Assembly: GCA_963755715.1 (NCBI GenBank)
Contig: CAVWLW010000028.1
Location: 1-40,520, forward strand
Length of the DNA stretch: 40,520 nucleotides
Source of the DNA: an uncultured delta proteobacterium
GTDB taxonomy: Bacteria; Desulfobacterota; Binatia; UBA9968
Direction: 5' to 3'
Under the pieces are notes generated by a model. That model was given only the letters and a program-made list of their open reading frames with translations. It had not been told where the DNA came from and ran no database searches. Positions 2,368 to 40,520 of the stretch are shown here, piece by piece. Position 1 is the stretch's first letter, and each line of letters starts with the position of its first letter. The translations under genes and the position numbers were made by a program.

Positions 2368-3517
2368 GTGACAGTGACCGGCGAGACAAAGAAGGCGTTT
2401 CGTTATCGCTTGGATCGAGCGACACGCGGGTGCGTCATGCGGGTGATGAATTGGTTGACTCCGGCGGCGCCCGAGCAGCGGGCCGATTTTCGTCAAACGG
2501 AGATCCAAAGAATTCTCCTGGTGCGAAGCCTTTTTCGCATGGGCGATTCCATACTCGCGACGCCGGCGATACTGCTCTTTCGGAAAAACTTTCCCGCGGC
2601 GCGGATCGACTTTGTCGGGCCGCGCATCTCCAAAACTCTTTTTCGAAACTTGCCCATCGACCATCACTACGAAGCGGCTCGGAGTTTTCCCAAAGTCTGC
2701 TGGTCCTATCTCGCGTTACTGAAAAGAATTCGCAAGGCAAAGTATGATTTGGCCGTCGACGTTAGCGGCTCGAGCGCAGCCTTGGGTTCGTTCATCGTCG
2801 GATTTTCCGCGGCGCGTTTCCGGGTCGGATTGAAAGGGCAATGGGACCGCTGGTTCAATATTCGACTTGTCAGATCGTCGCCGCTCAACAAATATGCCGT
2901 CTTACCCGAGTTGGTTCGTTCCATGGGACTGGAAAGCCCACCGGTTTATCCGACATTGATCCTGTCGGCTGGGGAAATCGCGCGAGGCTGGCCGGCGCAT
3001 CCAGGCTCTTATCCCCGGCGCCGCTGCTCCGGTCCTCGGCGTCTTCGTCGGCGGACGAAAGGCTCGCGGCAAGCGCTGGGCCAAAGAAAACTTCCTGGAA
3101 CTGGCGCGGCGACTGCGCGCAGAGGGGATGCAGCCGATCGTTTTTATCGGCCCGGAAGAGAGCGATTTACTTGGCTACTTCTCTGACGCGCTCGGGCCCG
3201 GCGTGCCGGTCCTACTCGAGCCCGACGTGCGCGCTTTTGCCGCGCTCGTTGCCAATTGCAAACTCTTCGTCGGCTGCGATAGCGGCCCGGTTCATCTTGC
3301 TTGCGCGCTCCGCGTAAGAACGATTGCAATCTTTTTGCAGGCGAATTTCGATCATTGGGGACCACCCGCCGAGCTCGCCCGAGTCGTGTTCCGGCCGAAC
3401 GGCGTGCCGGTCGACCTTGTCGTCGACGCATGCCACGACGAACTGCGGCATACTTCAGCCGGCCAAACGAGCAGTGTCGCCGCGTTTGATCCTGGTTTAT
3501 CCAGCACGCCATCGTGA
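2368..3517 (+). CDS. Glycosyltransferase family 9 (LPS heptosyltransferase-like), split by one frameshift near 2990
   Basis: N-terminal RILLVR...MGDSILATP..L...FP.A.I and YDLAVD. After the shift the frame reads VFVGGRKARGKRWAKENF...LFVGCDSGPVHLACAL, the GT9 C-domain motif. Confidence 0.8.
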
Positions 3518-3673: not shown

Positions 3674-5068
3674 ATGAACGTACGTCGATCGAGAAAACAC
3701 GCCAGCTTGCTGATCCTGTTTATGGGCTTGGCGCAAAGCTGCGTCGGTTACACAGCCAAGCCTCTGGATAATGAGGTCAAAAGCGCTCTTACGGCGCCGG
3801 ATATGGCGCAAATCCGCATCGAAGCGCGACAAATCAAGCATCCGATATTAAAACCGATCGAACTGGATATGAGCGATGGGTTGTCGGCCGACGAAGCGGC
3901 GATCCTAGCTGTCCTGGCTAATCTTAAGCTTCGTTCCGTGCGCGACCAACGGGGTATTGCATCTGCCCAGGTCCTTCAGGCGGGCATTCTCCCCAATCCG
4001 CAGCTCTCCTACACGCGGGACATTCCAACGGGAAATGCCGAGCAGGGTTTGGTTCCGGGATACGGCATTAATCTAAACTGGGAGGTGACGGCGTTGATCT
4101 CTCGGAGCGCCAAGATCGCTGCGGCGGCTTCCGATGCGGCTGCCGTAAATCTCGACGTGGCCTGGCAGGAATGGCAAACAGCCGAAGCGGCGAAGTTGCA
4201 GGTTCTGCACCTTCATTTTCTCGACCGTCAATTAGAGATTGCCGGAGCCGAGGAAGAAGGCTTGCGGCAAAATCTCGATGTCGTTAGGCGAGCGTTCGAT
4301 CGCGGCTTCGTGACGACGATCGAGGTTGCCGCCGCGGAAGCGGCGTTGAACAAAACGCGCGCCGACGTGCTCATGAAGAAGCAGCAACGGGAACAAGAGC
4401 GTCTGACCCTCAATGAGTTGCTCGGCTTTCCACCGGAAGTTATTTTGCAATTACAGTCACAAGACGAGATTTCCTGGACAAAAGCGCTGCCGCCATTGCA
4501 AGAGTTCACCGACGAGATCGAGGACCGGCGGCTCGACTTGTTGGCGCTTAAAAGCGGCTATCAGAGCCAAGAGGAGCGGCTGCGTGCCGCGATTCTGCAG
4601 CAGTTTCCGAAAATCAGTCTCGGCTTCTCGCGCGCCAGAGACACCACCGACGTCGTCTCGACCGGCTTCGGCATTACTATTGACCTGCCGCTTTTCGACC
4701 GAAACCAGGGCGGTATTGCTCTGGAAAGCGCAACGCGGTCCAAGCTTTTCGACGAATATATTGCGCGCGTGTTCGAAGCGCGCGGCGAGGTGGCGCACAT
4801 TCTAGCCAACGTCGAGTCGCTAAGGCGCCAGCGCGAAGTTGCCGAAAGATCGATTCCGACAATGCAAAAAGTAGTCGAATCTTACGGAGTCGCCCTGCGG
4901 CAGGGTAACGCCGATGTCGTGACCTATTACAATGCCAGAGCCGAATTGACCGCCAAACAATTGGAGCTGATCGATCTCAATCATCAACTCGACGATCTGC
5001 GCGTCGGGCTTGAAATCGCGAGCGGAGGTTATTTGGCACAAGGAGACAAGAAGGGAGCAATCCCATGA
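3674..5068 (+). CDS. TolC-family outer-membrane efflux protein
   Basis: Signal or lipoprotein-like N-terminus ending in C; PNPQL, FPKISLG, IDLPLFDRNQG OEP motifs; GGGGAG RBS before ATG 3674; ATGA-coupled to the MFP. Confidence 0.88.
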   Translation: MNVRRSRKHASLLILFMGLAQSCVGYTAKPLDNEVKSALTAPDMAQIRIEARQIKHPILKPIELDMSDGLSADEAAILAVLANLKLRSVRDQRGIASAQVLQAGILPNPQLSYTRDIPTGNAEQGLVPGYGINLNWEVTALISRSAKIAAAASDAAAVNLDVAWQEWQTAEAAKLQVLHLHFLDRQLEIAGAEEEGLRQNLDVVRRAFDRGFVTTIEVAAAEAALNKTRADVLMKKQQREQERLTLNELLGFPPEVILQLQSQDEISWTKALPPLQEFTDEIEDRRLDLLALKSGYQSQEERLRAAILQQFPKISLGFSRARDTTDVVSTGFGITIDLPLFDRNQGGIALESATRSKLFDEYIARVFEARGEVAHILANVESLRRQREVAERSIPTMQKVVESYGVALRQGNADVVTYYNARAELTAKQLELIDLNHQLDDLRVGLEIASGGYLAQGDKKGAIP

Positions 5069-6165
5069 AGCGGATGTTATCGATCGGTTTCAGCATTGCG
5101 CTCGTCGCTGGCGCTTTGGCGATCGGTTACCTGCGGTTTTCTTCTAACGGACAATCGCATGCCGAAGATGCGGGGTCGGTCTCAAAGGCAGGATCGTCGT
5201 CGGACGTCGAAGCGCCCGTGAAGGTTGCGCCGATTCGGCAAGGCGCCGTTACCGAGGAGATCACAGTTTACGGCACGGTGGTGCCGGCAGCCGGCGCCGT
5301 TCAAACGGTATCCGTGCCTTTTGAGAGCCGGGTGCGCCGCATTCTCGTGAGCGAATCACAACGCGTTTCCCAGGGCGATCTTCTGTTGGAAATCGAGCCG
5401 AGCGCGGATGCCAAGCTTCAAACCGATCTCGCCCGCAACGAATTCGAATCGGCGCAAAAGGCGCTCGATTTTCTGCAACAGCGCTTCGATCTCAAGCTGG
5501 CGACCAATGATCAGCTGCTGCAAGGAAAGCAGGCTTTGGAACAAGCTCGCGAGAAGCTCGAGAGTCTGCGGCGCCGAGAGCTTGACGGCACGCGCGCTGT
5601 TCATGCCGGCGTTCACGGGTTGATCTCGAAGATTTCCGCACAGGAAGGCGCCATTGTCCCGGCCGGGAGCTCGATGATCGAAATGGTCGCGCAAAATCGT
5701 CTCGAAGTGCGGCTGGGGATTGAGCCGGAAAACGTCGACAAGGTGAAACTTGGCCAGGCAGTATCGCTGGCGCGCGTGAACGCGCCGGCTGCCAAAACTG
5801 TTTCCGGTCTGATCCGTAAAATTTCCCACGCCGCCGATCCGACGACTCGTCTCGTGCAAGTTTTTACCGCGCCGCCGGCAAACGCCAACTTTCTCTTGGG
5901 AGAATTCGTTGCCGGAAAAATTGCCATCGCCTCCGAACGGGGATTGATCGTTCCTCGATCCGCGGTCCTTCCCGAAGAAGATCATTTTATTCTTTTCACG
6001 ACCAAAGAAGGTCGGGCTCAAGAACATCAGGTGCACGTCGGCTTGCAGGATCAGAACGAAACCGAAGTCATCGCCGATGATCTCCGGCCGGGCGATCTGG
6101 TGGTTACGGTGGGAAATTACGAGCTAAAAGACGGGATGACAGTCAAAGTCGACGCATCTCGATGA
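5065..6165 (+). CDS. RND efflux periplasmic adaptor (MFP) subunit
   Basis: N-terminal TM; lipoyl half-motifs (V..GDLLLEI; GLISKI..QEG..V..G); DPTTR and VPRSAV...L.PGD.VV..G; lies between TolC and RND genes. Confidence 0.9.
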   Translation: MKRMLSIGFSIALVAGALAIGYLRFSSNGQSHAEDAGSVSKAGSSSDVEAPVKVAPIRQGAVTEEITVYGTVVPAAGAVQTVSVPFESRVRRILVSESQRVSQGDLLLEIEPSADAKLQTDLARNEFESAQKALDFLQQRFDLKLATNDQLLQGKQALEQAREKLESLRRRELDGTRAVHAGVHGLISKISAQEGAIVPAGSSMIEMVAQNRLEVRLGIEPENVDKVKLGQAVSLARVNAPAAKTVSGLIRKISHAADPTTRLVQVFTAPPANANFLLGEFVAGKIAIASERGLIVPRSAVLPEEDHFILFTTKEGRAQEHQVHVGLQDQNETEVIADDLRPGDLVVTVGNYELKDGMTVKVDASR

Positions 6166-38705: not shown

Positions 38706-39386
38706 TTATTTATTTTGCGTTTTTTCGATTCTACTCAACAGACCATTGTTAAAAATAAGCACTGAGCCGTCAGGGTAGAACCAATGTTCTTCGGAGACCT
38801 TGATCGCACCGCGCACCTTCATGACCCGTCGAGGCGGGCCCAACACTCGCTTTACTTCCGCGGCATCTAGTCCTGGCGTTGCTTGCTTTTTGATCGCCGC
38901 TTCCTTCACCGGCAGAGACCAAGGTTGCGCGTTAATCCAATCGATTCTCTTCTTATCCTCGATCGATTGCTCTTCGGCGCGCTTTTTCTCGTCGGCCAAC
39001 GGGTCGGCGCTTAAGATGGTTGCGTTAAACTCCTCGAAAAACATTTCCGGTCGAATGTAGCCGACTTTGCCCGACTCGAACTTGACCTTATAGTACGGGT
39101 CCTTGGCCGCGCGTCCGGCAAGCTCAGTGATTTCAAACGATTCGTTTTGTGCTGGTCTGAACGTAGCCGCGCTGGGTGCCGGCGCGCTTAGAAAAGCCGG
39201 TGTTTTTTCATTGCGCGGGTTAAGCCAAAATATTTTTCCGACGCGAGCTTCCAGCGCATCGAGTTGTTTATCCGTGTAATGGTCGGAAGAAAAAACCTTC
39301 GAGTGCATGAACAAGAGAGCGAGTCCTAGGATGACGCCGCAGGCGACGGCTTCGTTCCTGACCATAAGAATTTTCGTGCGTTTCAT
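38706..39386 (-). CDS. Hypothetical exported or membrane-anchored protein with C-terminal SmpA/BamE-like motif
   Basis: N-terminal hydrophobic segment; YYKVKF.SGK.GY; G....EV..VLG.P.........E.W.Y......F.NG. Start is uncertain (39365-39425). Confidence 0.6.
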   Translation of the reverse strand: MKRTKILMVRNEAVACGVILGLALLFMHSKVFSSDHYTDKQLDALEARVGKIFWLNPRNEKTPAFLSAPAPSAATFRPAQNESFEITELAGRAAKDPYYKVKFESGKVGYIRPEMFFEEFNATILSADPLADEKKRAEEQSIEDKKRIDWINAQPWSLPVKEAAIKKQATPGLDAAEVKRVLGPPRRVMKVRGAIKVSEEHWFYPDGSVLIFNNGLLSRIEKTQNK

Positions 39387-39554
39387 ATGTCGCGGGCTCA
39401 CCCAGGTTTGACGCCGGTGTTTCAATGGCGCCCTTTATGAGCGTTAACTTAACACGTATGAGGCGTGACGCAATATTGTTTAGACGCGCGTGTGGGCGAA
39501 GCATGCCGAGTTAATTTTATCGATGCGCGTGAAGGTGAGAGAGTCATCGCCGCC

Positions 39555-39584
39555 AAATAAAAAAGGGGTCGTTGAGACCCCCTT
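39555..39584 (-). terminator. Intrinsic terminator downstream of the tRNA-fMet 3' fragment
   Basis: Minus strand GGGGTC-TCAAC-GACCCC followed by TTTTTTATTT. Confidence 0.75.
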
Positions 39585-39591
39585 GGCGGTT

Positions 39592-39615
39592 TGGTTGCGG
39601 GGCCGGGATTTGAAC
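39592..39615 (-). other. Isolated 3' fragment (nt 53-76) of initiator tRNA-Met; probable att site of an integrated element
   Basis: Minus strand GTTCAAATCCCGGCCCCGCAACCA: T-loop, 3' T-stem, acceptor CCCCGCA (A72, fMet hallmark), A73, CCA. The upstream sequence (GGGGGATAT) cannot form the T-stem, so the tRNA is incomplete. Confidence 0.82.
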
Positions 39616-39758
39616 ATATCCCCCTCACGTCCAACAAGTTTCATAAACTTCTAACTACGCGGAAAGACAACACGGTGAAAAGTCGCAAAGCCGGCTAATG
39701 TCGATCTTTATGCATTAACTATCGTGAAGTTTTCGAGAAGTCCGAAGGGGCTCGCTCG

Positions 39759-39797
39759 AAAAAAAAGGCCGCCGAGAGCCTGGAACTCTCGAAGGCC
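39759..39797 (-). terminator. Intrinsic terminator inside the putative island end
   Basis: Minus strand GGCCTTCGAGAG-TTCCAGG-CTCTCGGCGGCC followed by T8. Confidence 0.7.
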
Positions 39798-40057
39798 GGA
39801 AACGTTCGACGTTATGGCAAGGATTGTTTCCGCATGGGGCGGAAATAGCGCGATGAGACACTGGCAAGGGGCGCCCGGATGCTTCAGCGGTCGCTGGGAA
39901 TTATTTGTCGGAAAAGCGCTGTCCTATAGTTCACGGCTCCGCCTCGCACTCATCAAACTGCGCATTGGTATGCCCGCCTAATCCAAAATATCCGCGAGCA
40001 TTGAGACTCTTCTGAGGAGCGAACTGTATTTCATGCGGGAGTGCTACTCTTTCACGC

Positions 40058-40204
40058 CTACGCCGCTTCTCTCGATGCCTCGTGCTCCTCGTACGCCCTC
40101 TGCCGCCAGTCCGGCACGTAGCCGCAGTTGCGGCAGTAGAACTCCTCGGGAATGTGGTCGTGACATCGTGGGCAGCTACACCCATCGTCGGTTTCTGCTT
40201 TCAT
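40058..40204 (-). CDS. 48-aa Cys4 zinc-ribbon microprotein (absent from ORF track)
   Basis: My translation is MKAETDDGCSCPRCHDHIPEEFYCRNCGYVPDWRQRAYEEHEASREAA*; CPxC...FYCxNCG knuckles; GAGGG upstream of ATG. Confidence 0.7.
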   Translation of the reverse strand: MKAETDDGCSCPRCHDHIPEEFYCRNCGYVPDWRQRAYEEHEASREAA

Positions 40205-40310
40205 GTCCGGCCCTCATTTCCAATTTGTTTGCATGCGTTATCCGCAGTCATCATTGCGAAGTAGGCAACCTCGGCACACAAGGCGCAACTAAGGCGCACG
40301 GCTAGTTGAC

Positions 40311-40490
40311 TCATTTACGTCGGCGACGCATGGCAAGGGCCAAACCTATAAAGCCAGCGCCGAGCATTAACCATCCGACCGCAACCGGGGTCGCATGAGC
40401 CTGCTGGGGCCCAAGCGAGACTAGCGGAATAGAAATAAACATTGCGCCTACAACGACTGCGGCAACCACCAGAAAAATGATCTTGCGCAT
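40311..40490 (-). CDS. 59-aa membrane microprotein: signal peptide followed by a PEP-CTERM/VPLPA-CTERM-like tail
   Basis: GAAAGGA RBS; MRKIIFLVVAAVVVGAMF...QQAHA | TPVAVGWLMLGAGFIGLALAMRRRRK. Confidence 0.65.
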   Translation of the reverse strand: MRKIIFLVVAAVVVGAMFISIPLVSLGPQQAHATPVAVGWLMLGAGFIGLALAMRRRRK

Positions 40491-40520
40491 TAACAAATTT
40501 CCTTTCGATGGTTTGCTAAC

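Follow-up and report, generated by a model that had tools for sequence, protein, structure and literature searches.

A 3' fragment of the initiator tRNA gene at the boundary of a small tRNA-gene island with a decayed integrase in an uncultured soil bacterium of the Binatia

Near the right end of the window, i.e. the whole 40,520-nt stretch of DNA analysed here, the last quarter of an initiator tRNA is followed by a terminator and preceded by sequence that does not belong to a tRNA. The locus therefore raises the question of how the 3' end of a tRNA gene became separated from the rest of the gene, and to what the DNA beside it belongs. The window is the complete contig C28 of an assembly of 7.4 Mb in 76 contigs. 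We conclude, with a probability of about 0.88, that the fragment and its terminator are the original 3' end of the chromosomal initiator-tRNA gene, which was split off by a small tyrosine-integrase element. The locus is an ordinary tRNA-gene island boundary with a decayed integrase, situated in a genus-wide hotspot, and what is new about it is confined to the host lineage and the element family.

The orphan fragment and the intact initiator tRNA

The orphan fragment occupies positions 39592-39615, where the plus strand reads TGGTTGCGGGGCCGGGATTTGAAC; the tRNA lies on the minus strand, as the reverse complement GTTCAAATCCCGGCCCCGCAACCA. Sequence comparison demonstrates that GTTCAAATCCCGGCCCCGCAACCA consists of G53, the T-loop, the 3' T-stem, the 3' acceptor strand, A73 and CCA of a complete tRNA on another contig of the assembly, C65, being identical to C65:5356-5379. 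Since the match runs from G53 to CCA, the assignment to nucleotides 53-76 (T-loop to CCA) in the first-pass annotation, made from the window alone, is exact. Judged by its sequence, the segment 39592-39615 is the direct repeat of the att core at the distal junction (attR in the orientation of the tRNA). At up to two mismatches, the 24-mer is present in exactly two copies in the 7.4-Mb assembly (C28:39592-39615 and C65:5356-5379) and its backwards control in none, and therefore the orphan fragment is not a product of chance.

The same annotation had described a terminator behind the fragment and unrelated DNA in place of the 5' three-quarters of the tRNA, and both descriptions hold. Directly downstream of the fragment, the minus strand carries a hairpin (39584..39562) of nine pairs, five of them G-C, with the tail TTTATTT, and the region around it contains 4 terminator-like sites vs 1.2 +/- 1.2 in shuffles. 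This rho-independent terminator of the tRNA-fMet gene (39552..39584, minus strand) is composed of the stem-loop at 39562-39584 and a T-tract reaching to about 39552. Neither ARAGORN nor Rfam detects a tRNA in the entire window, implying that the 5' three-quarters are truly missing.

The public runs with the best share of sampled words (0.18-0.24) are all soil, rhizosphere or wetland metagenomes, available as contigs. A single 135-nt soil-metagenome contig (run X1, record 4) spans 39579-39713 with two differences, so the junction is present in at least one run, which is perhaps not the source sample. Runs X1, X2, X4 and X6 match the stretch in short pieces with no joints, the uncovered parts being uninformative on excision.

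A complete tRNA-Met(CAT) was located by ARAGORN at C65 c[5356,5432], and its 3' end is the same 24-mer as the orphan fragment. An intact tRNA-fMet with this 24-mer had been predicted beyond the window, to the right and in the same orientation. The full copy does exist; because the window is an entire contig, however, it lies on a separate one, and its co-orientation follows only from the geometry of the contig ends. Three tRNAs with the CAT anticodon are found in the assembly, and the C65 copy alone possesses the C1/A72 mismatch and A11:U24, which we take to be initiator marks; positions 1 and 72 are paired in the other two. It is also the sole initiator tRNA gene detected in the assembly. The C65 tRNA lacks the full run of three G:C pairs next to the anticodon loop: G:C pairing is limited to 30:40 and 31:39, with A:U at 29:41. 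We still read it as an initiator, because anticodon-stem variants with two G:C pairs occur in some bacterial initiator tRNAs. Congeners with an empty site, described below, have the same base in the displayed 5' part of the tRNA-fMet anticodon stem. The initiator tRNA of the genus (C65:5356-5432; congener loci L006, L008, L013 and others) has A29:U41 and retains two of the three canonical G:C pairs.

Empty sites, occupied sites and the termini of the element

The chromosomal side of the junction is marked by a core flanking gene, a 239-aa ORF at 38706..39425 on the minus strand with a weak, sub-threshold match to DUF7262 (Pfam E 0.0024). A search of 18 congeners found homologues in 15, and 12 genomes of other families had none. 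At eight of these 15 congener loci (G018, G012, G006, G014, G002, G007, G008 and G010) the site is empty: beyond the flanking gene come a complete tRNA-Met(CAT), which contains the identical 24-mer, and a Nudix gene. This Nudix gene is 73-85% identical to C65:5495-5920, which adjoins the tRNA on C65, and the aminotransferase of C65:5933-7135 lies beyond it in seven of the eight loci, the eighth being cut by a contig end. The flanks now found on C28 and C65 are thus adjacent in eight congeners, implying that they were formerly adjacent here. Most of the empty-site relatives shown have an equivalent hairpin and T-run directly after the full tRNA. The first-pass annotation had suggested a search for such an empty site, and had held that a continuous sequence across 39615 shared with relatives would speak against an island boundary; no such continuity is seen in the informative ones among the 15 congener loci.

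In four other loci (G017, G009, G015 and G003), an orphan fragment with 1-2 mismatches is followed by DNA unlike that of the window, which marks the site as a hotspot. G003 has three 24-mer copies; at its locus L016, two fragments stand in tandem and each has a terminator of its own. On a single 1.6-Mb contig of G015, the tRNA-fMet is followed by an intact integrase, a 5.5-kb island and a second 24-mer (1 mismatch), beyond which an island of about 46.9 kb leads to the orphan fragment and the flanking gene. This stretch (G015:C4:1355472-1407951; loci L046 and L047) thus contains tandem islands bounded by three 24-mer copies.

The remaining three loci are uninformative. L005 (G001) and L012 (G005) are situated at contig ends, and in L014 (G004) the flanking gene and the full tRNA are separated by about 6 kb that hold three more ORFs, where no repeat is recognised even when five mismatches are allowed. 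In L005, whose flanking gene is that of the closest relative (96% protein identity), the last ~115 nt of G001:C22 hold the equivalent of window positions ~39483-39585 in inverted orientation, terminator included; this small inversion may be genuine or an artefact of the contig end.

Of the two junctions, that of the orphan fragment has its island side towards the right end of C28, and that of the intact tRNA towards the left end of C65, a geometry consistent with an island between them. Neither of these contig ends has a suffix-prefix overlap of 12-200 nt with any contig end. Since the two junctions lie on separate contigs that do not overlap, we infer the physical continuity of C28 and C65, their co-orientation and the size of the island. 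A module on C238 of G033 was considered as a bridge across the gap and rejected, as it stands in a different context, beside tRNA-Ser and tRNA-Arg.

The DNA to the right of 39615 had been interpreted as island cargo on first inspection, and this interpretation is supported. The same DNA also forms the end of a second inserted element. The island terminus at 39616..39855, putatively the P' arm of the former attP, is conserved in C43 of the same assembly, in G033:C266 (97% identical) and in G011:C259 (77%); positions 39599-39855 are 91% identical to C43:87338-87593, the same terminus of a second element. On C43, this left terminus and an integrase 3' end (78% identical to C65:5253-5382) flank 6,682 bp (87354-94035). 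In G011:C259, a decayed integrase 3' end runs straight through a degenerate core into the left terminus, an arrangement that reads as an attP-like or tandem junction. At its tRNA-fMet, G033 carries this island too, with 97% identity at the left junction and 87% at the integrase end. From these pairings in C43, G011 and G033, we judge that both termini belong to one element type.

The C43 element (C43:87338-94051; L020:2339-9052) is itself a remnant, in which the 6,682 bp lie between 16-bp direct repeats (87338-87353 and 94036-94051) and only the last ~49 codons of the integrase are left. Its interior contains ORFs that, as named from their translations, encode a PDZ-type lipoprotein, an RlpA-like protein and a response regulator. 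The genes flanking it are about 150 bp apart, i.e. the site is empty, in 10 of 19 congener loci; the unpublished G005 contributed one of the 19 (L064), which does not count towards the 10. Between these genes, G018 and G004 have a hairpin within 1-2 mismatches of GGGGCGGG-TTTCAAA-CCCGCCCC, and the 16-bp repeats of C43 correspond to the left stem and loop of this hairpin. Therefore, the relative on C43 was inserted into a terminator hairpin resembling the T-arm of a tRNA. Contigs of runs X4 and X6 that start at 39599 and 39600 represent the flank of a C43-type site and not of the tRNA-fMet site.

Further remnants are scattered in the genome. Integrase remnants of the same broad family are present at G000:C24:164111-164444, beside a CAT-anticodon tRNA, and at C7:507-959, beside tRNA-Gly. 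Short modules on C9, C25, C62, C50, C74 and C53 are common to loci near tRNA genes. Since many such modules are shared in this way, the genome may hold a mosaic population of small islands.

The integrase and the content of the island

An integrase had been anticipated near the intact tRNA, and a tyrosine integrase indeed adjoins the tRNA-fMet at C65:4293-5399, its 3' end running into the tRNA. The gene lies directly downstream of the tRNA, converges on it, and is spread over ORFs in three frames (C65 4293-4652, 4546-5022 and 4902-5399), two of which match PF00589 (Phage_integrase): C65:4546-5019 to profile positions 5-59 and C65:4902-5396 to positions 95-167. An intact relative of 367 aa adjoins the tRNA-fMet of G015, with a PF00589 E value of 7.6e-12 and a near-threshold score against Phage_int_SAM_3 (22.0 bits; cut-off 22.6). 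When aligned to C65, residues 1-65 of the G015 protein fall in frame one, 65-242 in frame two and ~220-367 in frame one again. Because the relative aligns end to end across the frames, the C65 integrase is a full-length gene with two frameshifts, near 4477 and 5003, and is thus a pseudogene.

In principle, these frameshifts could be assembly errors. However, they lie outside long homopolymers, the neighbouring genes are intact, and in G033, a sister species, the integrase copy has independent lesions: an in-frame stop and two frameshifts, none at a position affected in C65. Different lesions in two assemblies speak for real decay, and suggest that the island is older than the species split.

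The integrase ORF extends 41-44 nt into the tRNA gene, so that its last 14 residues, MVAGPGFEPGTSRL, are encoded antisense to the tRNA. When the family of the G015 integrase is counted with one genome per species, the 3' end overlaps tRNA-Met by 41 nt at four of seven loci; one further locus lies beside tRNA-Glu/Gln and two have no tRNA. The hosts are labelled as Candidatus Binatia, delta-proteobacterial and Blastocatellia MAGs.

A 9-mer, TCGAGAAGT, may be an arm-type integrase-binding site. It occurs once in the window (39733-39741), at C65:5312-5320 and 5323-5331, and on C43 at 87471, 93984 and 93995, so that both element copies have it 44 and 33 nt before the att core and 118 nt after. We regard it as a candidate because the pairs on C65 and C43 are homologous and the core-proximal pair lies within the integrase coding sequence.

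Between the terminus and the contig end (39856..40520), the window holds island cargo with ORFs and a GC content of 0.535 vs 0.565 for the rest of the contig; overall, island GC is 0.51-0.535 vs 0.56 for the genome. One ORF of 48 aa (40058-40204, minus strand) is Cys-rich and zinc-ribbon-like and is located inside a multi-copy module (~40031-40276), copies of which are spread across the genus in G000:C62 (94%), G018 (three), G039 and G038 (two each), G014 and G037. Another ORF of 61 aa (40311-40496, minus strand) is hydrophobic, with two hydrophobic stretches and the end RRRRK; it resembles a signal peptide fused almost directly to a C-terminal membrane-anchor or sorting tail. Neither ORF was placed in a Pfam or PHROG family.

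On C65, an HTH_3 regulator (4078-4290, E 2.5e-10) and an HNH endonuclease (3015-3305, PF01844, E 1.2e-12) lie upstream of the integrase, alongside several family-less ORFs; Pfam and PHROGs gave no family for the other seven island ORFs. Some of the family-less C65 ORFs have protein-level matches of 56-72% in elements of other congeners, and therefore are, or were, real genes. The 59% match of a 169-aa ORF rests on the unpublished G005. The sum of 39616-40520 (905 bp) and C65:1-5355 (5355 bp) gives the island at least 6260 bp.

A related element in G037 combines the same HTH-integrase module (68-74% nucleotide identity) with Prim-Pol (PF09250, E 6.4e-36) and pieces of AAA_25. Short collinear tblastx traces are all that remains on C65, and Pfam and PHROG searches of the assembled island ORFs detected no Prim-Pol/helicase or helper-dependent packaging domain, Prim-Pol being found only in the G037 relative. 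The island thus appears to be a deletion-riddled remnant of a small integrase/HTH/Prim-Pol element, of which the gap between the contigs could hide more.

Origin of the boundary and its relatives among known elements

The arrangement would be explained if the attP of the incoming element carried a copy of tRNA nucleotides 53-76 at the extreme 3' end of its integrase gene. Recombination within the 24-bp identity, starting in the T-loop, would have rebuilt a complete tRNA-fMet at the integrase-proximal end (C65, 5356-5432) and left the chromosomal 3' fragment with its terminator (39552-39584) at the distal end, in the window, away from the intact tRNA. The island would then run from 39616 to the contig end and continue across the assembly gap into C65:1-5355. 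Since the integrase is frameshifted, the element is probably a fixed and immobilised remnant rather than an active one; most likely it is decaying and no longer excises itself.

The tandem islands of G015 and the repeated fragments of G003 suggest that the orphan could belong to an island other than that of the integrase. It would then bound an older or different island within a tandem or composite array, with further att copies and islands in the gap between C28 and C65, and the C65 integrase would be that of another element. The mosaic, multi-copy nature of the cargo modules and the break of the assembly inside the island are compatible with such an array. Nevertheless, the assembly contains only the two copies of the 24-mer, exactly these two termini are paired in the C43 remnant and in the G011 junction, and G033 combines this left junction with this integrase end; we therefore consider an array unlikely.

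It is far less probable that C28 and C65 originate from more than one strain or organism, in which case the two junctions would not be those of one insertion. The source is a MAG of 76 contigs with an estimated completeness of 93.6% and contamination of 4.21%, and some tRNA pairs are found on two contigs (C12/C47 and C17/C33). Against such a binning or assembly artefact stand the nature of both junctions as island junctions of the same site, the adjacency of their flanks in the eight congeners, the single copy of each flank in the assembly and the same junction pair in G033. A tRNA pseudogene that arose without any mobile element, through a local duplication or deletion, would account for a truncated tRNA and nothing further. 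We give this idea hardly any credence, for the tRNA is truncated just where a perfect 24-bp repeat lies, a repeat that ends next to an integrase, relatives have empty sites, and the DNA right of 39615 is the terminus of another inserted element as well. Displacement of the tRNA 3' end by a small tyrosine-integrase element is thus the reading that we retain.

A broader picture, to which we give even odds, is that the genus has its own elements of 5.5-7 kb with integrase, HTH and Prim-Pol genes, the integrase of which ends inside the sole detected initiator tRNA gene. These elements may pile up in tandem and use terminator hairpins that mimic the T-arm, as on C43, as secondary sites. The copy in the window would be a decayed member, inherited vertically since before the split of G000 and G033.

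The preference of integrases for sublocations within tRNA genes was reportedly the subject of earlier work by Williams in 2002. PICI-like small integrative elements and satellites carry an integrase, an HTH regulator and a Prim-Pol/helicase replicase. The G037 relative, with its HTH-integrase module and Prim-Pol, resembles them, and the size range of 5.5-7 kb fits; the assembled island, unlike these satellites, has no Prim-Pol, and we do not claim membership. In SSV-type integrases, attP is located inside the int gene. The att core here likewise overlaps the integrase coding sequence, but the overlap concerns the last 14 codons, so that the C-terminal tail is changed and the catalytic domain is not split.

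The gene metV encodes an initiator tRNA. The metV islands of E. coli and Salmonella, to which PMC7545054, PMC2907695 and PMC3573123 relate, similarly place foreign DNA beside an initiator-type tRNA-Met; by description, those islands are large with secretion or virulence cargo, whereas the present one, of at least 6.3 kb, carries HNH, HTH and family-less ORFs. The T-loop is a known sublocation for tRNA-targeting integrases according to the available portion of bioRxiv 10.1101/2020.11.02.365908. As far as that portion describes tRNA-gene islands and prophages, our locus agrees with them in a repeat spanning the T-loop, 3' T-stem, 3' acceptor strand and CCA, in restoration of the tRNA at the integrase end with displacement of the 3' fragment to the far end, in an integrase adjoining the intact tRNA and in a site that is a hotspot. 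It differs from the islands described there in its uncultured soil lineage host, in the sole initiator tRNA gene found as the target, and in an integrase ORF that reaches 41-44 nt into the tRNA gene and is a pseudogene. The part of PMC12429752 at hand concerns tRNA genes carried by prophages and not integration sites. A search for literature on Binatia integrases and tRNA, supplements aside, returned none.

Conceptually, the locus does not go further than the established model of tRNA-targeted islands. Its value is that it sets bounds to horizontally acquired DNA in an uncultured soil organism and accounts for the assembly break, with 39616-40520 and C65:1-5355 representing accessory, decaying DNA. 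The natural attB/attP pair together with the intact G015 integrase could be tried as a tool for site-specific integration in the lineage, and the tRNA-fMet gene of the genus is a recurrent landing site.
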